NCBI GenBank assembly: GCA_041662205.1
Contig: JBAZSZ010000002.1
Coordinates: 103,266-167,265 of the forward strand
Source: Minisyncoccota bacterium
GTDB taxonomy: Bacteria > Patescibacteriota > Minisyncoccia > Phycocordibacterales > UBA9973
Length of the DNA: 64,000 bases
Direction: 5' to 3'
Part shown: positions 2,099-42,214 of the stretch, piece by piece
Layout: the number at the start of each line of letters is the position of its first letter
Numbering within the stretch: the first letter of the stretch is position 1
The notes under the pieces: generated by a model
Database searches by the model: none
Seen by the model: only the letters and a program-made list of their open reading frames with translations
Told to the model about the DNA's origin: nothing
Translations under genes and position numbers: made by a program

Positions 2099-3025
2099 TT
2101 AGTTATTCAATTTTTGTTTAATAGTGTCTGTTAGATTTTTAGCGGAAGATGTTAAGGCAAAGGCATTTTTTTCATATTGGACTATGGCGCCTATTGCTAC
2201 TATCGGATCATTCTCAAAAAGTTTTAGATCGCTTACGGTTTCTTTAATTTTTTGAGAATTATTTATTAAATTTAAATGCAACAAAGAGAGAGATTGTGGT
2301 ACTGGTAGTTTTAATGATTCATTAATAATCTGATTTGTTTGATTAATGACTGAATCAAGTTCTGCTAATTTTGCAGTGTTTGTTTCATCTGCTATAAATT
2401 CTTCCAAGATGGCTGGTACTCCTTTTTTAATGCGGTGTTTTATATAAATATTATTTAAAGAGTCGCTGTATTTTTGGATAACAAGTTTTGTTTCAGTATT
2501 AATGATTTTAATATCAGAAATTCTATAGATTTTTCTTTGGGTAGAATTTTCTATTTTATCGGATAGAGAATTACTTAAGGCATCTATTGTTTCTTGGTCT
2601 ACTTGACCATTTTGACTTAGGGCTGTAACTGTCGCAAAAAGCTCTCTGGAGAATTTGTCCGTTTGAGTTAGGTTTTCTGCACCTGTGGGACCTCCAATAG
2701 TAGCACTAGCACCGGCTTTTTTTTCTTGTTCAGCTCTTAATTTACTTAAGGTAATGCTGTCAGGTGTCCCCAAGGTAGTTTCTTTTTTGTTCGGGTCAAG
2801 ACCATATAAGCTTTCTTGCCAATCCGGTATTCCATCACTGTCGGTATCTTTGTCTACTAGATCTAGTATGGTGGCATTCTCATCATAAGTCAGACCATTT
2901 TTTGTATTATTTTCTTGATTAGATATTTTAGTATTTTTGAATAGAGATGTCTTTTGAAAAATTAAAAGTACCACTAAAAAAAGCACCGCTAAGATGATTA
3001 GAATTATCTTTTTGTGTTTTACCAA
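2099..3025 (-). CDS. Membrane-anchored hypothetical protein with a DxDxDG calcium-binding (thrombospondin type 3-like) motif
   Basis: ORF track, 308 aa, with an N-terminal hydrophobic helix and the motif DKDTDSDGIPDWQE. Confidence 0.55.
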   Translation of the reverse strand: MVKHKKIILIILAVLFLVVLLIFQKTSLFKNTKISNQENNTKNGLTYDENATILDLVDKDTDSDGIPDWQESLYGLDPNKKETTLGTPDSITLSKLRAEQEKKAGASATIGGPTGAENLTQTDKFSRELFATVTALSQNGQVDQETIDALSNSLSDKIENSTQRKIYRISDIKIINTETKLVIQKYSDSLNNIYIKHRIKKGVPAILEEFIADETNTAKLAELDSVINQTNQIINESLKLPVPQSLSLLHLNLINNSQKIKETVSDLKLFENDPIVAIGAIVQYEKNAFALTSSAKNLTDTIKQKLNN

Positions 3026-3127
3026 AAATATTTTAATAACAATCTAATTGTAACATCTCTTTTAAAAGGAAACTAGGTTTTTGGGGATATCTATGTCTTA
3101 TTTTATAATTATAGTATAATTTATTCC

Positions 3128-4126
3128 ATGAGACTGTTTTTTATTTTTTTATTTCTTATTTTCTCTTTACTTTTTTCTTCACAGACAGCTTTTGCAGTTT
3201 CTACAACCTCAGCTTCCTCTGATTGCAGTATTACTCTTAAATTAAAAGTAGGTTCAAAGGGTATCGAAGTAGAATGTCTTCAAAGAAAAATAGGGATTGT
3301 GGCTGATGGAAGCTTTGGACCTTTGACTAAAGCTAAAATTGTAGTTTTTCAATCAAATAATGGTTTAAAGATTGACGGAATAGTCGGTCCGCTCACACGG
3401 ACGGCTCTAAATGGTATAAAAGTAGGTAATATTTACCCAGAAGGTTGTATCTCAAATGTAGGATATAGTCCAACGACTGGCAAAAAATGTGATGGTACTG
3501 TAAAAAGTGTTGTAAATAAAGGCTTTAATCCTACTTCTATTCTTACCCCTACTCTTACTCCAAAACTTACTTCCAATAATGTAAATATGGATCAATTTAT
3601 TAAAACAGTGGTAGAAGTAAGTAGAAAATCTGGTTCCAGTGAAGCAAATCTTAAAATCATAGCGGATACTCTCAGGGAAACAATTCTAAATAGTGATGTT
3701 GATTATAATAAAAAATTTGAAGAATTGTTGACCAATGAAAGTAAATTGAGCACTAATTTAAAAACTAATATTTTTGCTTCTGTGTTTGATAAAGTTCTTA
3801 CAAAGACTTTTTCCTTTTTAGGGATTAAGCCTTCTATGGCTTTTGCTGCAACTGGTATACCGTTTGGTGGAGCTTTACTCTTTCCTTTTTTTTGTGAATA
3901 TAATGCAAGCTGGATGATAACTGTTTCACCTCTTCCCCCAACTTTTGTAACCCTTCTCTCTTATTATCCGGGAACTCAAGGATTTGCGAGTTATAATATA
4001 CCTTTTACTCGTTGGTTGCTCGGTGAATATGTAACACCTGGCGTTTGTTTAATACCAGGTGACCCTGTTATTGTTATTCCCACTACAGGTACTATTACTC
4101 CAAAGGTAGGTTCTTCTCCTATTTAG
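3128..4126 (+). CDS. Secreted protein with two putative peptidoglycan-binding (PG_binding_1-like) repeats
   Basis: Signal peptide MRLFFIFLFLIFSLLFSSQTAFA, followed by two repeats of the form GSKGIEVECLQRKIGIVADGSFGPLTKAKIVVFQSNNGLKIDGIVGPLTRTAL. Confidence 0.6.
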   Translation: MRLFFIFLFLIFSLLFSSQTAFAVSTTSASSDCSITLKLKVGSKGIEVECLQRKIGIVADGSFGPLTKAKIVVFQSNNGLKIDGIVGPLTRTALNGIKVGNIYPEGCISNVGYSPTTGKKCDGTVKSVVNKGFNPTSILTPTLTPKLTSNNVNMDQFIKTVVEVSRKSGSSEANLKIIADTLRETILNSDVDYNKKFEELLTNESKLSTNLKTNIFASVFDKVLTKTFSFLGIKPSMAFAATGIPFGGALLFPFFCEYNASWMITVSPLPPTFVTLLSYYPGTQGFASYNIPFTRWLLGEYVTPGVCLIPGDPVIVIPTTGTITPKVGSSPI

Positions 4127-4961
4127 AAGCAAGAGAAATTAGTATTATCCAATCATTGAGCGATAAATCTTCTGCTCTTTTGTTTTCCAGAGATGCCAAA
4201 TCCTTGTTTTGGCAGACATTCTTTAAATTACCAGAGAGTTTTTTTCTTTTATGGGCGAAGCCTGCTTTTACTATTTCCCAAAATTTTTCTTCGTTTATTT
4301 TGTTTTTTATAAAAGTTTTCCTAGAAATATTTTTTATAGAGATAATAGCTGAATCAACTTTTGGTGCGGGAGAAAAATATCTAGCGGGTACCTTCATTAT
4401 TAATTTTGGATCTCCGTAAGCTTTGACTGAAATGGAAAGGATGCTCTCTTTTTGGTCACGAGCGATGATTCTTTTGGCTACTTCATGCTGGACCATCAGA
4501 ACCATAAGTTCTGGTTGATGCAAACCACCTAAAAATTTTTTTAGAATTGCGCCAGTGATATTGTAAGGAATGTTGGCGATTATCTTATAGCGAAGAGATC
4601 TTAAATTTTTAGAATGGTCTGGCCGGGATAGGGACCCGGAGAACCGAGGACTTGATAAAAATTTGAAAATCTCTTCGCTGATATTAAATTCTAAAATATC
4701 CTCATTTATTAAAATTAATTCCCCCCCAGCAATTTCTTTTTCAAACCTTTCTTTTAAAAATTCAAAAAGTTCTCGGTCTTTTTCTACTGCTATTACAGTT
4801 TCAGATTTTTCTAAAAGTTTTTTTGTGAGAGCTCCTTTCCCCGGCCCTATTTCTAAAATTACATCTCCCTTTTTTATTTCACCCGCTTCAATAATTTTTT
4901 TTAAAGCCAGTTCAGACTTTAAAAAATTTTGCCCTAGTGATTTTTTTGCTTTGTGTTGCAT
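4119..4961 (-). CDS. ksgA: 16S rRNA (adenine1518/1519-N6)-dimethyltransferase KsgA/RsmA, carrying an in-frame palindromic element insertion
   Basis: Motifs LGQNFL and EIGPGKGALT (SAM-binding) plus NIPYNIT. The inserted segment SSPRFSGSLSRPDHS is encoded by repeat copy A. Confidence 0.85.
   Translation of the reverse strand: MQHKAKKSLGQNFLKSELALKKIIEAGEIKKGDVILEIGPGKGALTKKLLEKSETVIAVEKDRELFEFLKERFEKEIAGGELILINEDILEFNISEEIFKFLSSPRFSGSLSRPDHSKNLRSLRYKIIANIPYNITGAILKKFLGGLHQPELMVLMVQHEVAKRIIARDQKESILSISVKAYGDPKLIMKVPARYFSPAPKVDSAIISIKNISRKTFIKNKINEEKFWEIVKAGFAHKRKKLSGNLKNVCQNKDLASLENKRAEDLSLNDWIILISLASK
4606..4660 (+). repeat. GC-rich palindromic element, copy A (core ~4614-4652) inside ksgA
   Basis: agaATGGTCTGGCCGGGATAGGGACCCGGAGAACCGAGGACttgataaaa. 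The central CCGGG-ata-ggga-CCCGG hairpin is flanked by the inverted repeats GGTCTGG/CCGAGGACC and by outer ttttnGA/TnAnAAAA arms. Confidence 0.8.
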
Positions 4962-4965
4962 ATAT

Positions 4966-7047
4966 TTATAAGTAAATTGTTTTTATTCCACTAGCCTCCC
5001 CTTCTTTTTCTAATAAATCTGCTGGAATATCAGAAATAAATTCTGATGGAGCATTGATGTTGCGTGATCCAAAAATAGTGCGGAAATTTGCAAAGGATAA
5101 AAATAATTTTCTTCGGGCGCGGGTGAGCGCTACATAGAAAAGCCTTCTTTCTTCTTCACTATCTTCTCCAGACTGTCTCTCTCCTTGTCTTTGGTGCGGG
5201 AAAAGTCCGTCTTCAAGTCCAGTAATAAAAACGTATTCAAATTCAAGGCCTTTTGAGGCATGTACTGTCATTAATTTTATGGCATTTATTGTTTCTTTTT
5301 TCTCCTGATTTATCATTAAAGAATCCTGATCTGAGGCAAGGGAGGCATCTTCTAGAAGTTTTTCTACCCCTGCTCCATTTGTTAAATTGTCATATTTAAG
5401 AGCAAGGGTGGCGAGTTCTTTAATGTTTTCTAGTCTTTCCATATCTTCTTCAGTACCATTTTGTAATTCTTGTTCTATTCCAGATTTTTTGATTACAAAT
5501 TTTATTAATTCACTTGCTTTCAAGTTCGCTATTTTTTCTTTTATTTCTTCTAGTGTTTCGTAAAATTTGCTGATTTTTAACTGCATTTTTATTGGTAAGG
5601 TTTCTTTTTGGTTGGCAAAAATTTTCATCAAAGTTACTTTGCCGATGCCTCGTGCCGGGAAATTTATTATTCTTTTTATGTCAGATAGGCTGTCAGGATT
5701 TAAAGCTGCGCGCAAATATGCGAGAGTGTCTTTAATTTCTTTTCTTTCAAAAAATTTAACCCCTAAAACTTGGTAAGGGATATTATATCGAAGCATCGCT
5801 TCTTCGAGTGCTCGTGATTGGAAATTTGCGCGATATAAAACTGCGACTTCGCTGGCGATGCTTTTGCTCAGGTTCTCGGTCCCCCGGGTCCCTATCCCGG
5901 CCAGACCATTCTCAAAAGCATCACCAGCCCCGTCTATAATTTCTAAAATTTTTGTCGCGACAAATTCGGCTTCATCAGTTTCATCCAGAGCTTCATAGAG
6001 ACTTATCTTTTCACCTTCCACATTTTTTGTAAATAAATTTTTATCTGGCCGGTATTTATTTTTTTTGATTACTTCATTTGCCGCTTCTAAAATATTTTGA
6101 GTAGATCTATAATTTTGTTCTAATAAAATTATTTTGGCATTTGGGTAATCTTTTTCAAAACTTAAAATGTTTTTCAAATTTGCTCCGCGCCAAGAGTAAA
6201 TATTTTGATCGGCATCACCAACTACACAAATATTTTTATTATTTTCAGAAAGTAGCTTAGACATCAAGTATTGCACTTCATTGGTGTCTTGATATTCATC
6301 CACATGGATATATTCCCATTTTTCTTGATAAATTTTTCTGATTTCTGCATTTTCTTTTAATAATTTTGTCGCTTTAAGGAGCAGATCATCAAAGTCTAAA
6401 GAATTCTCTTTCATTTTTTGCTTCTCATATAAATTCCAAACCTGCGCTACTATTTTTCCGAGAGGACTTGAGCCCCCCTCTTCCCTCTCCGCATAATCTG
6501 CTAAATGTACAAACTTTCCTTTTTCTCGCGAGATTATATTTTTTATTTTTTTTGGATCGTATTGTTTTGGATCTATGCCGAGTTCTTTTAAGATATTTTT
6601 AATAAGGGTAGTCGCATCTCCTTCATCTAAAATAGTGAAATATCTTGTAAGTCCTAATAATCTAGCATTTTCTTTTATTATATAAACTCCTAGAGAGTGA
6701 AAAGTGGATACGAAAGGCGCTTCACTGGGAATACTTTTTTGGATGGTCTGGCCGGGATAGGGACCCGGAGAACCGAGGACCTCCGAAAAAGCATTCCCAG
6801 TGAAGCTGTTTTTTATTGCAACATCAATTCTTTCACGCATTTCCTTGGCAGCTTTATTGGTGAATGTCACTGCCAGAATTTTATCAGGAGACACTCCATT
6901 TTTTATTAAATTTACAATTCGGTGCGTAATGGTTTTTGTTTTTCCAGCTCCAGCTCCAGCAATAATCAAAAGTGGTCCCTTCATATGAAGCGCCGCCTCT
7001 TTTTGTTCAGGATTTAGGCCTTTAAGATGTTTTTCGTCTGTATCCAC
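4966..7047 (-). CDS. uvrD: UvrD/PcrA-family ATP-dependent DNA helicase carrying two in-frame palindromic element insertions
   Basis: Walker A GAGAGKTKT, DEYQDTN, and the VLYRANFQSRALEEA helicase motifs. Two extra loop segments, SEVLGSPGPYPGQTIQ and LAGIGTRGTENLS, are encoded by repeat copies C and B. Confidence 0.85.
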   Translation of the reverse strand: MDTDEKHLKGLNPEQKEAALHMKGPLLIIAGAGAGKTKTITHRIVNLIKNGVSPDKILAVTFTNKAAKEMRERIDVAIKNSFTGNAFSEVLGSPGPYPGQTIQKSIPSEAPFVSTFHSLGVYIIKENARLLGLTRYFTILDEGDATTLIKNILKELGIDPKQYDPKKIKNIISREKGKFVHLADYAEREEGGSSPLGKIVAQVWNLYEKQKMKENSLDFDDLLLKATKLLKENAEIRKIYQEKWEYIHVDEYQDTNEVQYLMSKLLSENNKNICVVGDADQNIYSWRGANLKNILSFEKDYPNAKIILLEQNYRSTQNILEAANEVIKKNKYRPDKNLFTKNVEGEKISLYEALDETDEAEFVATKILEIIDGAGDAFENGLAGIGTRGTENLSKSIASEVAVLYRANFQSRALEEAMLRYNIPYQVLGVKFFERKEIKDTLAYLRAALNPDSLSDIKRIINFPARGIGKVTLMKIFANQKETLPIKMQLKISKFYETLEEIKEKIANLKASELIKFVIKKSGIEQELQNGTEEDMERLENIKELATLALKYDNLTNGAGVEKLLEDASLASDQDSLMINQEKKETINAIKLMTVHASKGLEFEYVFITGLEDGLFPHQRQGERQSGEDSEEERRLFYVALTRARRKLFLSFANFRTIFGSRNINAPSEFISDIPADLLEKEGEASGIKTIYL
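5862..5919 (-). repeat. Palindromic element copy B (reverse orientation) inside uvrD
   Basis: ggttctcggtcccccgggtccctatcccggccagaccat, the reverse complement of the family core with variant termini. Confidence 0.8.
6737..6792 (+). repeat. Palindromic element copy C inside uvrD
   Basis: ggATGGTCTGGCCGGGATAGGGACCCGGAGAACCGAGGACCtccgaaaaag. The 39-nt core is identical to copy A. Confidence 0.8.
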
Positions 7048-9890: not shown

Positions 9891-9903
9891 TAGTTATCCA
9901 CAT
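9891..9903 (+). promoter_or_regulatory. Perfect DnaA-box-like motif TAGTTATCCACA upstream of a -35/-10 pair (LysM-M23 gene leader)
   Basis: TTATCCACA is the canonical DnaA box. The same extended 11-12-mer recurs at 12069-12078, 26966-26976, 42156-42167 and, in reverse orientation, at 37783-37794, each 25-40 nt upstream of a plausible -10 hexamer. Confidence 0.5.
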
Positions 9904-11863: not shown

Positions 11864-12132
11864 TTTATTTATTGTTTTAAAATAAAATCCTTATTTTAAA
11901 AACAAAAAAGCTGTTTCACGTTTAACATGTTTCACATGAAACATAGTAACAAATTTTTAGTAAATTTTATGTCTTTTACTATAATATCCTTATTTTATAA
12001 GATATATACAGAAAAAATGCTAATAAAAGACAGTTTCATATTGTGTCCTTTATGAACAGTACTAACATAGTTATCCACAATTTTATTAAATCTTTAATTT
12101 ATAAGGTATTATTAAGGGACATCATTTTTTTG

Positions 12133-24902: not shown

Positions 24903-24955
24903 TTTCCCCCACCCCAGGGATAGGGGAAATCCCCTATCCCTGGGGTGGGGGAAAC
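24903..24955. repeat. Perfect 53-bp palindrome (25-bp arms, 3-nt spacer) between divergent metK and the dksA-like gene
   Basis: TTTCCCCCACCCCAGGGATAGGGGA-aat-TCCCCTATCCCTGGGGTGGGGGAAA. GC-rich in an AT-rich genome. Its GGGATAGGG centre resembles the core of the in-frame element family. Confidence 0.85.
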
Positions 24956-24968
24956 TTGCTATGAAAAT

Positions 24969-25346
24969 ATGAAATGTTATGATTGTGGCATGTTAGACAA
25001 GAAAAAAATTAAAGAGAAATTAGAAAAAGAAAGAGATGTTTTGCTTGAGCAGATGAAGGACTGGGGCAAATTAAATGGAGAGACAGGAGAGTGGGAAGCG
25101 ATTCCGGAAGTATTGGAATTTCCGGAAACTGATGAAAATGATAAAGCCGACCGGTTCGAGAATTTTGAAGCTAGAAGTTCTATGATCAGAACCCTAGAGC
25201 CAAGATTAAATATTATTTTAAAATCATTGAAAGGAATAAATAGAGAGTCTTTTGGAAAGTGTGTAGTTTGTGGAAAATTTATTGAAATGGCGCGCTTGGA
25301 AGCAAATCCTGCTGCTCAGACATGTAAGAAACATTTAGAAAGTTAA
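24969..25346 (+). CDS. DksA/TraR-family C4 zinc-finger protein
   Basis: C-terminal CVVCGKFIEMARLEANPAAQTCKKH preceded by a coiled-coil region. The ORF-track start (GTG at 24945) lies inside the palindrome; an ATG at 24969 is more plausible. Confidence 0.65.
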   Translation: MKCYDCGMLDKKKIKEKLEKERDVLLEQMKDWGKLNGETGEWEAIPEVLEFPETDENDKADRFENFEARSSMIRTLEPRLNIILKSLKGINRESFGKCVVCGKFIEMARLEANPAAQTCKKHLES

Positions 25347-25349
25347 TTT

Positions 25350-26966
25350 ATGAGTTTTGCCAAAGTTTATTCAGCGCAAGTTAATTTACTCAAGGGTTCT
25401 ATCGTGACTATTGAAGTAGATCTCTCAAAAGGGCTCCACTCTTTTAGCTTGGTTGGTTTGCCGGACAAAGCGGTGGATGAATCCAAAGATAGAGTAAGCG
25501 GAGCCATAAAAAATTCTGGCTTTAAATCTCCCAAAGCAAAAAATCAAAAGATAATAGTTTCGCTTTCACCGGCTGATTTGAAAAAGGAGGGCCCTTTTTT
25601 TGATTTAGGAATTGCTTTGTCTTATATGCTAGCGGCGGGTGACGTGAAATTTGATTCAGAGAAAAAGATTTTTTTAGGAGAGCTGGGGCTCGATGGAACT
25701 TTGCGGAAAATCCGTGGGGCCTTACCACTTGCGCAAGAAGCTAAAAGACTTGGTTTTGAAGAAATATATTTACCAAAAGAAAATGCAGTCGAGGCGGCGT
25801 TAGTGGAAGGCATAAAAATTTTTGGAGCAAATAGTTTGCAGGAAGTGGTGAGGCATCTAAGCCCCAATGAGGCCAGCAAAATTTTTTCGGGTCCTCGGTC
25901 TGAAGCCAGACCAGCTCAAAAATCTTCTAGCCTCATTGAGGCTGGAGGATTAATTAATATTCAGCCGCAAACAAAAATAAATTATAAAAAAGAAATATCA
26001 CGGATTGATTTTTCAGATATTCGTGGGCAAGAGGGAGCCAAGCGAGGTTTGGAAATTGCGGCAGCTGGCGGACACAATATCGCCATGTATGGCCCACCGG
26101 GCACAGGTAAGACGATGCTTGCTCGGGCATTTTCTCAACTACTACCAGATTTAGATCTTGATGAGGTTTTAGAAATTACAGGCATTCACTCAGTAGCAGG
26201 AAATACAAATGGAGAGTTAGTTTGTTTTCCTCCATTTCGTTCCCCGCATCATACTTCGTCCTATGTTTCTATTATCGGTGGAGGGACATATCCAAAGCCC
26301 GGAGAAGTGACGCTCGCACATCGCGGAGTTTTATTTTTAGATGAATTTCCAGAATTTGAAAAAAGAGTGATCGAATCTCTGCGCCAGCCACTCGAAGACA
26401 ACATTGTTTCAATTTCGCGCGCCAAAGGAAATGCTTGTTTTCCTTCAAATTTTATTTTAGTCGCGGCGATGAATCCTTGTCCTTGTGGGAACGCGACTTC
26501 GAAACAAAAAGCATGCATTTGCAAACCGTCCGACTTAGATAGATATAAAAGAAAATTGTCTGGACCGATTGTGGATCGTATCGATCTCTGGGTTTCTGTC
26601 GGTAACGTTGATTATAAAAAATTAGGAGGCGATGGGGATGGCGAGAAAAGTGAAAAGATAAAAGAAAGAATAATCAAAGCGCGAGAAAACCAAAAAAATA
26701 GATTTAAAAAATTTGAGAAAGATATTAAGAAAAAAATCACAACTAATAGTGAGATGAATGTAAAAGATCTAGGTATGATGGTGCCACTCGGTGGCAAAGT
26801 GAGAGACTTGCTCGATGATAGTGCAGAACGTTTGAGCTTGTCTGCTCGCGCCTATCATCGGATAATTAAAATAGCATGCACGATAGCAGACTTGGAAAAT
26901 TCTCCTGAGGTAGAAGAGCATCATATTTTAGAAGCGATACAATATCGACCGAAAGTTAATAACTAG
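25350..26966 (+). CDS. comM: YifB/ComM-family Mg-chelatase-like AAA+ ATPase, carrying an internally deleted copy of the palindromic element in its linker
   Basis: N-terminal Lon-like domain, Walker A GPPGTGKT, Walker B VLFLDEF, and a C-terminal Mg-chelatase region. The linker SGPRSEARPAQ is encoded by repeat copy E. Confidence 0.8.
   Translation: MSFAKVYSAQVNLLKGSIVTIEVDLSKGLHSFSLVGLPDKAVDESKDRVSGAIKNSGFKSPKAKNQKIIVSLSPADLKKEGPFFDLGIALSYMLAAGDVKFDSEKKIFLGELGLDGTLRKIRGALPLAQEAKRLGFEEIYLPKENAVEAALVEGIKIFGANSLQEVVRHLSPNEASKIFSGPRSEARPAQKSSSLIEAGGLINIQPQTKINYKKEISRIDFSDIRGQEGAKRGLEIAAAGGHNIAMYGPPGTGKTMLARAFSQLLPDLDLDEVLEITGIHSVAGNTNGELVCFPPFRSPHHTSSYVSIIGGGTYPKPGEVTLAHRGVLFLDEFPEFEKRVIESLRQPLEDNIVSISRAKGNACFPSNFILVAAMNPCPCGNATSKQKACICKPSDLDRYKRKLSGPIVDRIDLWVSVGNVDYKKLGGDGDGEKSEKIKERIIKARENQKNRFKKFEKDIKKKITTNSEMNVKDLGMMVPLGGKVRDLLDDSAERLSLSARAYHRIIKIACTIADLENSPEVEEHHILEAIQYRPKVNN
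25884..25913 (-). repeat. Internally deleted palindromic element copy E inside comM
   Basis: ttttcgGGTCCTCGGTCTgaagCCAGACCAgct. Both termini are retained and the central palindrome is replaced by gaag. Confidence 0.6.
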
Positions 26967-26992
26967 TTATCCACAGTACCTTTGTTGACAAG

Positions 26993-27008
26993 TGAACGCT
27001 TGTTCACT
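26993..27008 (+). promoter_or_regulatory. Cheo-type LexA (SOS) box GAAC-N4-GTTC inside a sigma70-like promoter (TTGACA, 18 nt, TATACT)
   Basis: ttgacaAGTGAACGCTTGTTCACttatact. The operator fills the -35/-10 spacer. lexA lies about 260 bp downstream on the same strand. Confidence 0.7.
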
Positions 27009-27065
27009 TATACTATATTTACGACCAAGTCGCGGGTCAAATTAGTAAAAATAATAAATAAACAT

Positions 27066-27272
27066 ATGAGTCAATCACAATATTTAAAAATGCTAGAGAA
27101 GGAAATACAAAAAATCAATAAAAAAATTGATTTGAAAATTCTCCAGGGGCAAGATTATCGAAAGGAAGCAAGAGATCATAAATTGCTTTTAAAAAAAGTT
27201 CGTTATAACTCTAGAGTTAGTTTGACGAACAGATTTGTTACTCTATTCTTCAGAACAAACATCTATGCATAA
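27066..27272 (+). CDS. Small basic protein (68 aa), translationally coupled to lexA
   Basis: MSQSQYLKMLEKEIQKINKK... The stop TAA overlaps the lexA ATG (ATGCATAA). It lies downstream of the SOS-box promoter. The ORF-track TTG-extended version (26982) overlaps the promoter and is probably spurious. Confidence 0.45.
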   Translation: MSQSQYLKMLEKEIQKINKKIDLKILQGQDYRKEARDHKLLLKKVRYNSRVSLTNRFVTLFFRTNIYA

Positions 27273-27843
27273 TTCCTATCAGGAAAAGATTGAATCTTTT
27301 TATAAAGAGAATAAAAGAATGCCAGCATACTCTGAAATGATGAAGTTATTCGGTTTCAAATCAAAGAATGCTGTGTTTCGAGTGGTGGAGAAGTTGATTA
27401 ACATGAATATGGTTGAGAAGGATCATTTGGGTAGATTAATCCCATCTGAAACATTTACAGAAAATATTTCTAGTATTCCCATGCTTGGTTTTGTCACGGC
27501 TGGATTTCCGGCAACGGTGGAAGAAGAGTTGGCAGATAAAGTAAATTTGGATGATCTTTTAATAAAAAATAAGCCGCTAACATATATGCTTGAGGTAGAT
27601 GGAGATTCAATGATCGATGCCCACATAAAACCTGGGGACATGGTACTCGTAGAAAAAACAAATACCGCTCGCGACGGGCAGATAGTTATTGCTGAAGTAG
27701 ATGGAGAATTTACGATGAAATATTTTCGCAAAACTGTTACAAAAGTCTGGCTCGAACCAGCGAATAAAAATTATAAACCGATTTATCCAAAACATTCGCT
27801 AAACATTAATGCAGTAGTTAAGGCGGTTATAAGGAAATATTAA
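27265..27843 (+). CDS. lexA: LexA repressor (S24 peptidase)
   Basis: Winged-helix N-terminus (MPAYSEMMKLFGFKSKNAVFRVVEKL), cleavage region, VDGDSM (Ser nucleophile), GDMVLVE, and the catalytic Lys region MKYFRK. Confidence 0.85.
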   Translation: MHNSYQEKIESFYKENKRMPAYSEMMKLFGFKSKNAVFRVVEKLINMNMVEKDHLGRLIPSETFTENISSIPMLGFVTAGFPATVEEELADKVNLDDLLIKNKPLTYMLEVDGDSMIDAHIKPGDMVLVEKTNTARDGQIVIAEVDGEFTMKYFRKTVTKVWLEPANKNYKPIYPKHSLNINAVVKAVIRKY

Positions 27844-27855
27844 TTTATAGAAAAT

Positions 27856-27882
27856 AAAAAATCCCCATTAAGGGGATTTTTT
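27856..27882. terminator. Bidirectional intrinsic terminator between lexA and hup
   Basis: AAAAAATCCCC-attaa-GGGGATTTTTT, an 11-bp stem flanked by A and T runs. A second perfect palindrome, attttatCTCGAGataaaat, follows. Confidence 0.7.
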
Positions 27883-27902
27883 ATTTTATCTCGAGATAAA
27901 AT

Positions 27903-28178
27903 TTAGGCAACCATGTCTTTCAAACCTTTTGCAGGTCGGAATTTTGGAACTTTCTTTGCAGCTACTTTTACTTGCTCTCCAGTCTTTGGATTGCGAGCCA
28001 TTCTTGCAGCTCTTGCCTTTACGGAAAAGATTCCGAATCCAGCGATTGAAACTTCACCACCCTTTTTCAAGGTCTGGATGATAGCGTCAAACATTGAATC
28101 AACGATTTCCTCAGCTTGTACTTTTGTACCACCGAGCTTTCCATGTACTAATTCGGCTAATGCTTGTTTATTCATATA
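27903..28178 (-). CDS. hup: DNA-binding protein HU
   Basis: MNKQALAELVHGKLGGTKVQAEEIVDSMFDAIIQTLKKGGEVSIAGFGIFSVKARAARMARNPKTGEQVKVAAKKVPKFRPAKGLKD. The ORF-track extension upstream to 28442 is unsupported. Confidence 0.85.
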   Translation of the reverse strand, partial: YMNKQALAELVHGKLGGTKVQAEEIVDSMFDAIIQTLKKGGEVSIAGFGIFSVKARAARMARNPKTGEQVKVAAKKVPKFRPAKGLKDMVA

Positions 28179-37602: not shown

Positions 37603-37816
37603 ATTTTCCCTCCTAACAGAAAATTTATGAAAAAAATCTTACTCTAAATTTTATCAACAAGCTTCCTAACTTGTCGATACGGGTCTCGAGCGTCCCCGTT
37701 GTTTTTTTATTGTTTCAACGTACCTCCTTCAATTAGATACTATCAAATAACGATTTTTCGTCAATTTAGAAAAAGCGTGATTGTGGATAACTCGCCAGAG
37801 GCGAGCAAGTTCTTTT

Positions 37817-42110: not shown

Positions 42111-42214
42111 ACCAGAAAATAGTACCATAAGAGTGATTTTTATGCAAACACAATAGAGTTATCCACACCTCTGATTCACCCTTTTTCTTTTTTGTTCTAT
42201 ACTTATCTTAACTT

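Follow-up and report, generated by a model that had tools for sequence, protein, structure and literature searches.

In a 64,000-nucleotide (nt) stretch of the genome of a Minisyncoccota bacterium (assembly GCA_041662205.1, contig JBAZSZ010000002.1, positions 103,266 to 167,265 of the forward strand; hereafter the window), a gene for a 68-amino-acid (aa) basic protein lies immediately before lexA, downstream of a promoter that carries a predicted LexA operator. This small gene spans positions 27066-27272 on the forward strand. Its product, the small protein, has an isoelectric point (pI) of 10.2 and a net charge of +10, and is modeled as a helical hairpin followed by a Phe-rich C-terminal tail. 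The gene for LexA (192 aa) follows on the same strand at 27265-27843. An earlier note on this DNA, made from the letters alone, had read the small open reading frame (ORF) as an SOS-induced gene translationally coupled to lexA. The ORF is present as it was described, and its TAA does overlap the lexA start codon; the ATG of lexA is at 27265, not at 27266, giving an overlap of 8 nt (ATGCATAA, 27265-27272).

The identity of the downstream gene is clear from its sequence: it encodes a LexA with the canonical self-cleavage residues. The protein matches TIGR00498 over its full length (residues 9-191, including the N-terminal DNA-binding domain) with 125.4 bits, for a cut-off of 110.95, and Peptidase_S24 with an E-value of 9.5e-29; the separate Pfam model of the LexA N-terminal domain gave no match. 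In an alignment with E. coli LexA, the cleavage site Ala79-Gly80, the nucleophile Ser115, and the base Lys152 fall on the motifs VAAGEP, GMSM, and TVKRL of that protein, where the usual numbering is A84-G85, S119, and K156.

We compared the locus with the lexA loci of 80 species of Patescibacteria of the Nomurabacteria and Paceibacterota types, taking one locus from each (81 loci with the window). All 80 have a homologue of the small gene directly upstream of lexA and on the same strand. The earlier note had staked its case on the conservation of the frame in relatives, and the frame is intact in 79 of the 80 species, with the marks of purifying selection. Over codons 1-55, the ratio of nonsynonymous to synonymous differences per site (pN/pS, Nei-Gojobori) is 0.20, the same value as for lexA, while the other two frames of the same DNA give 1.10 and 1.61. 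Entropy at codon positions 1, 2, and 3 of the small gene is 0.52, 0.37, and 1.21, respectively. These patterns of sequence change show that the small ORF is a genuine protein-coding gene under purifying selection. Family conservation begins at the ATG of MSQ-QYLK, and the leader upstream of this codon varies between 6 and 144 nt and contains insertions. The longer ORF starting with TTG at 26982 is therefore unsupported, in line with the doubt expressed before. The single interrupted copy, in locus L007 (1838-2041), has a CAA to TAA change at the codon of the conserved Gln15 in an otherwise intact frame, which points to an error of assembly or else to a nonsense mutation that arose very recently.

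The family is large and uncharacterized. The small protein has 606 close homologues, all of them nameless or "hypothetical," and a profile search of 1.84 billion representatives returned 296 clusters at 50% identity, nearly all of 60 to 70 aa. Among curated families and known folds (Pfam, NCBIfam, PHROGs, and, by profile search, PDB) no match was found: in Pfam, the window protein has only a subthreshold hit to YxiF, and the 27 divergent members give scattered single matches. Leaving aside the 2017 study cited below, our search of the published work found no paper linking Patescibacteria, LexA, and such a small gene.

The promoter in front of the small gene is composed of a -35 hexamer TTGACA (26985-26990) and a -10 hexamer TATACT (27009-27014), separated by an 18-nt spacer that is filled by the predicted LexA operator AGTGAACGCTTGTTCACT, an 18-nt palindrome (26991-27008; core palindrome at 26992-27007). 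It contains the inverted repeat GAAC-N4-GTTC at 26994-27005, which is the Cheo-type, Gram-positive-like LexA box. All the elements of the near-consensus promoter with an operator in its spacer, as first noted from the letters, could thus be located, and all lie on the forward strand. With a score of 11 out of 12, this promoter, of the sigma-70 type, is the top site of the 2-kb region that we scanned; the promoter scores 10 to 12 in 81/81 loci, with TTGAC(A) kept in the relatives and the -10 hexamer backed by the same comparison. In the window itself, the bare core GAAC-N4-GTTC is not significant, with one match when 0.58 are expected and at least one match in 43 of 100 shuffles. The full 18-mer is significant, with 0.01 matches expected even when allowing for 3 mismatches. 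The decisive evidence that the operator exceeds chance is comparative: the motif GTGAACG-NN-CGTTCAC stands between TTGAC(A) and TATACT in 81/81 loci, the window included. The unit of promoter and operator is also kept in distant lineages. The possibility raised earlier, that the LexA of this lineage binds a different motif, finds no echo in these lexA promoters, since all 81 carry a palindrome of the GAAC-N4-GTTC type. Judged by sequence, the operator overlaps the promoter of its own lexA in every one of them, as expected under autoregulation. The operator type as such is not new: a Gram-positive-like LexA motif and LexA autoregulation have reportedly been described in Patescibacteria by Sanchez-Osuna, Barbe and Erill in 2017 (Environ Microbiol 19:3465).

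The operator of the window differs in one respect from the others. It is the sole one of the 81 with a T in place of a C at an inner position of the right half-site (GTGAACGCTTGTTCAC versus GTGAACGNNCGTTCAC), a change within 26992-27007 that may weaken it slightly. We searched the window for other operators with a matrix built from the sites of the 81 loci. No second site reached the threshold of 8 bits, the lexA site having 29.7 bits, in agreement with the earlier impression that the window holds a single Cheo box. The window genes for UvrD (4966-7047, minus strand) and for a PIF1-type helicase have no operator, and no recA gene was found in the window.

Transcription is predicted to start near 27021, which would leave a 5' untranslated region (UTR) of about 45 nt (27021-27065), with the semiconserved elements AAGTCG (27027-27032) and ATTAGTA (27041-27047) and with no Shine-Dalgarno sequence. 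Across the 80 relatives, AGTCG occurs in 44 of the 5' UTRs and TTAGTA in 29, and a Shine-Dalgarno-like sequence is missing before the small gene in 77. The element AAGTCG is often the loop of a short hairpin, the stem of which varies with compensating changes (e.g., gacc/ggtc and agcc/ggct). Rfam returned no match to the 5' UTR, and its subthreshold matches at 27817-27920 correspond to the terminator described below. In three loci (L036, L041, and L075, at about 3770-3785 in each), the spacing between the -10 hexamer and the ATG of the small gene shrinks to 6 nt, which implies a leaderless mRNA; such an arrangement is independent evidence for the assigned promoter as well as for the start codon. 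In several other species, the interval between promoter and small gene has taken up GC-rich palindromic inserts resembling miniature mobile repeats, e.g., cccctacccagcctccccctatgtagggggagg... (loci L003, L023, L027, L043, L048, L062, and L071, and also L007, L016, L017, L022, L024, and L050), so the leader tolerates insertions.

Several observations indicate that the two genes are transcribed together, as had been proposed. The promoter that they share is conserved everywhere, no terminator lies between them, and a strong intrinsic terminator follows lexA. This hairpin (27851-27887), flanked by A and T runs, has a minimum free energy of -19.4 kcal/mol (z = -4.66), and none of 200 shuffled sequences folds as well; it is shared with a convergent HU gene identified by domain search (27903-28175, minus strand). 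In the 70 nt before the ATG of lexA, the promoter score never exceeds 9 in the 81 loci. A candidate internal lexA promoter at 27222-27249 was rejected for lack of conservation. Since the operator fills the spacer of the shared promoter, LexA would repress lexA and the small gene together, and we regard a LexA-autorepressed bicistronic operon, induced upon LexA cleavage, as very likely.

Translational coupling, the other part of the original proposal, is common and not universal. The 8-nt overlap is found in 31 of the 81 close loci, and another 31 have a gap of 0 to 11 nt; the gap is of 12 to 30 nt in 8 loci and above 30 nt in 11, with a maximum of 104 nt. A Shine-Dalgarno-like sequence is missing before lexA in 76/81 loci. 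The linkage extends to more distant relatives. We inspected six divergent family members, with 27 to 47% identity to P0212, the reference of the alignment, and all six adjoin an S24/LexA gene even if their neighbors are otherwise unrelated. In four of them the small gene precedes lexA, with junctions of +3, -8, +6, and +8 nt, and in the other two (L081 and L086) the order is reversed. In a single metagenome scan for operators, restricted to sites without flanks of the lexA type, most of the returns were again operons of the small gene and lexA, from other lineages (L092, L108, L128, and L164). Altogether, the two genes are linked on the same strand in 90/90 related loci, 88 with the small gene first and 2 with lexA first. 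Given that the overlap is present in only 31/81 loci, that gaps reach 104 nt, and that two lineages have the reverse order, the sequences indicate that conservation bears on the linkage and the joint expression of the two genes rather than on translational coupling in itself.

Some of these distant loci have unusual arrangements. In L164, two tandem small genes, of 62 and 63 aa, precede lexA (60-1021 nt downstream of an operator at 1220, minus strand), and the second, diverged copy ends in RKGFLARVLGN, very close to the membrane-targeting sequence of MinD. The operator scan also gave oddities (L088, L161, and L166). In L161 the same operator precedes the gene of a 326-aa protein, in which an N-terminal winged helix like that of LexA is fused to an unrelated C-terminal part, and in L166 it precedes the gene of a 96-aa protein consisting of an S24-type C-terminal domain alone, with a degenerate Ser motif. 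L081 encodes on one strand (2339-6201) a LexA of 210 aa, the small protein, two NUDIX proteins, RarA/MgsA, a YgjP-like protein, and a Y-family polymerase, a row of genes that looks like a long damage operon. Neither GAAC-N4-GTTC nor TTATCCACA, the motif discussed next, was found upstream of it, and the LexA of this lineage may use a different motif.

The initial description of the promoter was right about its elements and overlooked a further one. Just upstream of the -35 hexamer lies TTATCCACA (26967-26975, forward strand), an exact match to the DnaA-box consensus (PMC8203912), which ends 9 nt before the hexamer and covers about -54 to -46 relative to the predicted start. Among the 78 assessable loci, it is exact in 74 and has a single mismatch in the remaining 4, and its distance to GTGAAC is constant at 14 to 16 nt. 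The motif is also found at a spacing of 8 to 9 nt in the distant lineages L082, L083, L084, L087, L092, and L108; in L086, which has the reversed gene order, it is 18 nt away, one helical turn further. Because the upstream gene differs among loci, TTATCCACA is part of the promoter rather than of the tail end of comM, the upstream gene in the window. In the window and the 80 loci, its density in intergenic DNA is 39 times that in coding DNA, and still about 19 times when the lexA copies are left aside. The window holds four further exact copies, all intergenic (9894-9902, 12071-12079, and 42159-42167 on the forward strand and 37782-37790 on the minus strand), whereas 0.83 exact copies are expected in total. 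These matches suggest the existence of a small regulon for a protein binding TTATCCACA, and an input of DnaA at the lexA promoter seems plausible to us, at about even odds.

Each of the four further copies is preceded by AG and stands upstream of promoter-like sequence. The genes downstream of them encode a LysM-M23 peptidase, an enzyme of the CCA-adding/poly(A) polymerase type, and two proteins without a family (116 and 291 aa).

There are precedents for a link of this kind. Sda is a small helical-hairpin checkpoint protein of Bacillus subtilis, without homology to the small protein. The sda gene is directly bound by DnaA, and in E. coli DnaA and LexA co-regulate uvrB and recN (PMC8203912). 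As in the latter two genes, a DnaA-box consensus stands here beside a LexA-controlled promoter (PMC8203912). In contrast to them, the candidate box is on the promoter of the master regulator itself, at a fixed distance of 8 to 9 nt from the -35 hexamer, and it is conserved across the clade.

What could the small protein do? A model obtained with AlphaFold2 from 46 homologues is a two-helix hairpin, with helices at residues 3-27 and 32-63 and a mean predicted local distance difference test score of 87. In 27 divergent members, which share only about 30% identity overall, M1, N18, I21, I25, Y31, and H38 are invariant, and D22 and G28 nearly so. By heptad spacing, N18 and H38 are at core positions, and we infer from the model that they may form a buried polar pair setting the register of the helices. 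The family has a median net charge of +10 and a median pI of 10.3. Its composition changes sharply after residue 46: Phe makes up 20% of the tail versus 1% of the hairpin, and Asp plus Glu 1.1% versus 13%, with Lys plus Arg at 18.5% of the tail. A transmembrane protein can be rejected, since no window is of transmembrane grade (the maximum 19-residue Kyte-Doolittle value is 0.92, for a threshold of about 1.6). Tails of the family read ...SFLKRLFPSF or ...SFFSRFFPTF, and 54 of 80 contain the hexamer [FLIMW][FLIM]x[KR][FLIM][FLIV], versus 1.5 among shuffled tails. In L031 and L045 the hexamer is FLKRLF, the very sequence found in the membrane-targeting C terminus of E. coli MinD (...KKGFLKRLFGG).

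The likeness to MinD concerns a short C-terminal amphipathic motif in which paired hydrophobic residues flank a basic one. It is a likeness of motif only: outside the tail, the small protein bears no relation to the MinD ATPase, and its binding to membranes is a prediction. A single copy of the MinD targeting helix binds weakly, and dimerization is needed to hold the protein on the membrane (PMC8155659).

The position of the small gene recalls the small genes found beside lexA in Gram-positive bacteria, which encode SOS division inhibitors; the synteny with lexA has itself been used to predict such inhibitors (PMC6851548). Like YneA, ChiZ, DivS, and SosA, the small protein is the product of a short gene that is restricted to its lineage, linked to lexA, and placed under a LexA box, and its C-terminal region is likely to be important for turnover. 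The differences are substantial. The genes of the known inhibitors are divergent from lexA, whereas in our 90/90 loci the small gene is on the same strand and in the same operon. The known inhibitors have one transmembrane segment, an extracellular C terminus, and, in most cases, a LysM domain (PMC6851548), while the small protein has no transmembrane segment, no LysM match, and no sequence homology to them, and is predicted from the model to be a cytoplasmic basic hairpin with a tail of the peripheral-membrane type.

Other known proteins offer partial parallels. SulA, known from E. coli, is described as co-transcribed downstream of lexA in Pseudomonas. This case would be a precedent for an inhibitor in the lexA operon, SulA being a LexA-repressed cytoplasmic checkpoint protein; yet SulA has about 160 to 170 aa and the opposite gene order, and the small protein has no Pfam match to it. 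The helical hairpin YnzC of B. subtilis is encoded in the LexA-controlled yneA operon beside lexA. YnzC (UPF0291/DUF896; PDB 2HEP) is called an "SOS response protein" in the entry of Aramini 2008, as cited in PMC4143570, and like the small protein it has no assigned function. We rejected homology between the two (hhalign probability 0.2%, no match to PF05979, and YnzC not among the top fold matches), and YnzC lacks the Phe-rich basic tail. The protein gp7 of phage GIL01 binds the LexA of its host, as a co-repressor. Like the small protein it is very small (50 aa), but it is phage encoded and acidic, and homology was again rejected (hhalign probability 0.15%).

The reading that we favor, to which we assign a probability of roughly 40%, is that the small protein acts as an SOS effector associated with the membrane, holding back division or envelope growth, and is reset by the LexA made together with it. 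LexA would repress the shared promoter, and its cleavage after DNA damage would induce both genes at once. DnaA, through the DnaA-box consensus at about -50, could modulate the same promoter, so that replication status and DNA damage would be integrated. The small protein would fold as a strongly basic antiparallel two-helix hairpin, and its acid-free Phe-rich tail, with a MinD-type amphipathic motif (hydrophobic-hydrophobic-x-[K/R]-hydrophobic-hydrophobic), would hold it at the inner face of the membrane, probably after self-association. Once induced, it would accumulate there and delay division or another envelope process during repair. New LexA from the same transcript would then shut the operon off, and the hydrophobic tail may double as a degradation signal that clears the small protein.

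Several points weigh against this effector. The role in division is a guess by analogy, and the hallmarks of the known inhibitors encoded beside lexA (transmembrane segment, LysM domain, and extracellular C terminus) are all missing from the small protein. The amphipathicity of the tail beyond its composition is modest (a median of 17% of shuffles reach the observed moment), and the tail could instead be a degradation signal or an oligomerization element. The net charge of +10 would suit nucleic-acid binding equally well. As for the promoter, the binding of TTATCCACA by DnaA is suggested by the match to the consensus, which makes it a candidate site. The main argument concerns expression and conservation. 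A gene co-transcribed with its repressor, and not divergent from it, would be expressed in uninduced cells in step with LexA, and the hairpin is as conserved as LexA, whereas the known SOS division inhibitors "generally show little homology" to each other (PMC6851548). Production in step with LexA without damage, together with LexA-like conservation, fits a partner protein better.

The main rival to the effector reading is an accessory factor of LexA (or RecA). As a stoichiometric partner made from the same mRNA, the small protein would tune how LexA binds DNA, dimerizes, or cleaves itself, or where it is located; it could act as a co-repressor, counter cleavage, or tether LexA to the membrane. 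We hold it to be possible and doubtful. The strict linkage in the 90/90 related loci, which survives reversed order and changed neighbors, the overlap of start and stop or a gap of at most 11 nt in 62/81 loci, and a conservation as strong as that of LexA all speak for such a partner, as does an autoregulated promoter by which the small protein would be present whenever LexA is. Yet there is no homology to gp7, the model for such a factor, which is acidic whereas the family here has a pI of 10.3; LexA is roughly neutral (family median pI of 6.2) and offers no obvious charge complementarity; and this reading accounts for the MinD-like tail only if LexA itself is held at the membrane. What tips the balance toward the effector is the tail motif together with the precedent of lexA synteny. 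A bolder variant, an obligate two-protein SOS switch peculiar to Patescibacteria, in which the small protein would pair physically with LexA, or anchor either LexA or DNA at the membrane, and the promoter would be read jointly by LexA and DnaA, strikes us as unlikely. Slightly less likely still is a damage-induced small basic nucleic-acid-binding protein, either nucleoid associated and protecting DNA or acting as a minimal tether between DNA and membrane that blocks division over the nucleoid; the logic of Noc is the model for such a block.

TisB and DinQ are precedents for SOS-induced toxins that perturb the membrane, and the small protein might promote dormancy in their manner; TisB-like behavior would suit a small, LexA-controlled protein with a hydrophobic, aromatic, and basic tail. 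We consider this improbable: there is no membrane-spanning segment, the conserved soluble hairpin makes up most of the protein, neither an antisense RNA nor an antitoxin arrangement was seen, and co-expression with lexA in uninduced cells would be costly. (TisB itself is mentioned in PMC11575346.) Finally, the ORF could be a leader peptide or regulatory upstream ORF of which translation alone matters, bringing ribosomes to a lexA without Shine-Dalgarno sequence. The frequent 8-nt overlap (31/81 loci) and the missing Shine-Dalgarno-like sequence before lexA (76/81) would fit such a role. However, strong purifying selection on the amino acids, invariant residues kept at about 30% overall identity, gaps of up to 104 nt, and two lineages in reversed order effectively refute it.

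Patescibacteria are a huge and mostly uncultivated branch of bacteria with minimal genomes, in which the control of the cell cycle is almost unknown experimentally. What is new here is an uncharacterized, lexA-linked, predicted SOS protein of small size and a conserved composite promoter joining a DnaA box and a LexA box. A family of this size is within the reach of synthesis, and its genetic tie to the master regulator of the SOS response across the clade provides a testable handle on a damage checkpoint. Its architecture, a soluble basic hairpin (by the model) with a MinD-like tail encoded in the lexA operon, is unseen among the known small proteins linked to lexA. The promoter places an exact DnaA-box consensus and a LexA operator at a fixed spacing in front of lexA, and this suggests one point at which replication status and DNA damage are integrated. 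Were the small protein a division inhibitor, it would represent a new structural class in that group; were it a partner of LexA, LexA could no longer be pictured as a repressor working alone. Should the two-protein switch be true, bacteria with minimal genomes would fuse the checkpoints of replication initiation and DNA damage at the very gene of the master regulator.

The genes preceding the operon deserve a last remark. In the window, a DksA/TraR-type zinc-finger gene and then a comM-like gene, for an Mg-chelatase-type ATPase, lie just upstream of the lexA module (24945-26966), with no terminator evident between comM and the promoter. The same DksA/TraR-type and comM-like pair likewise precedes the lexA module in a distant lineage (L086, 1-1905).

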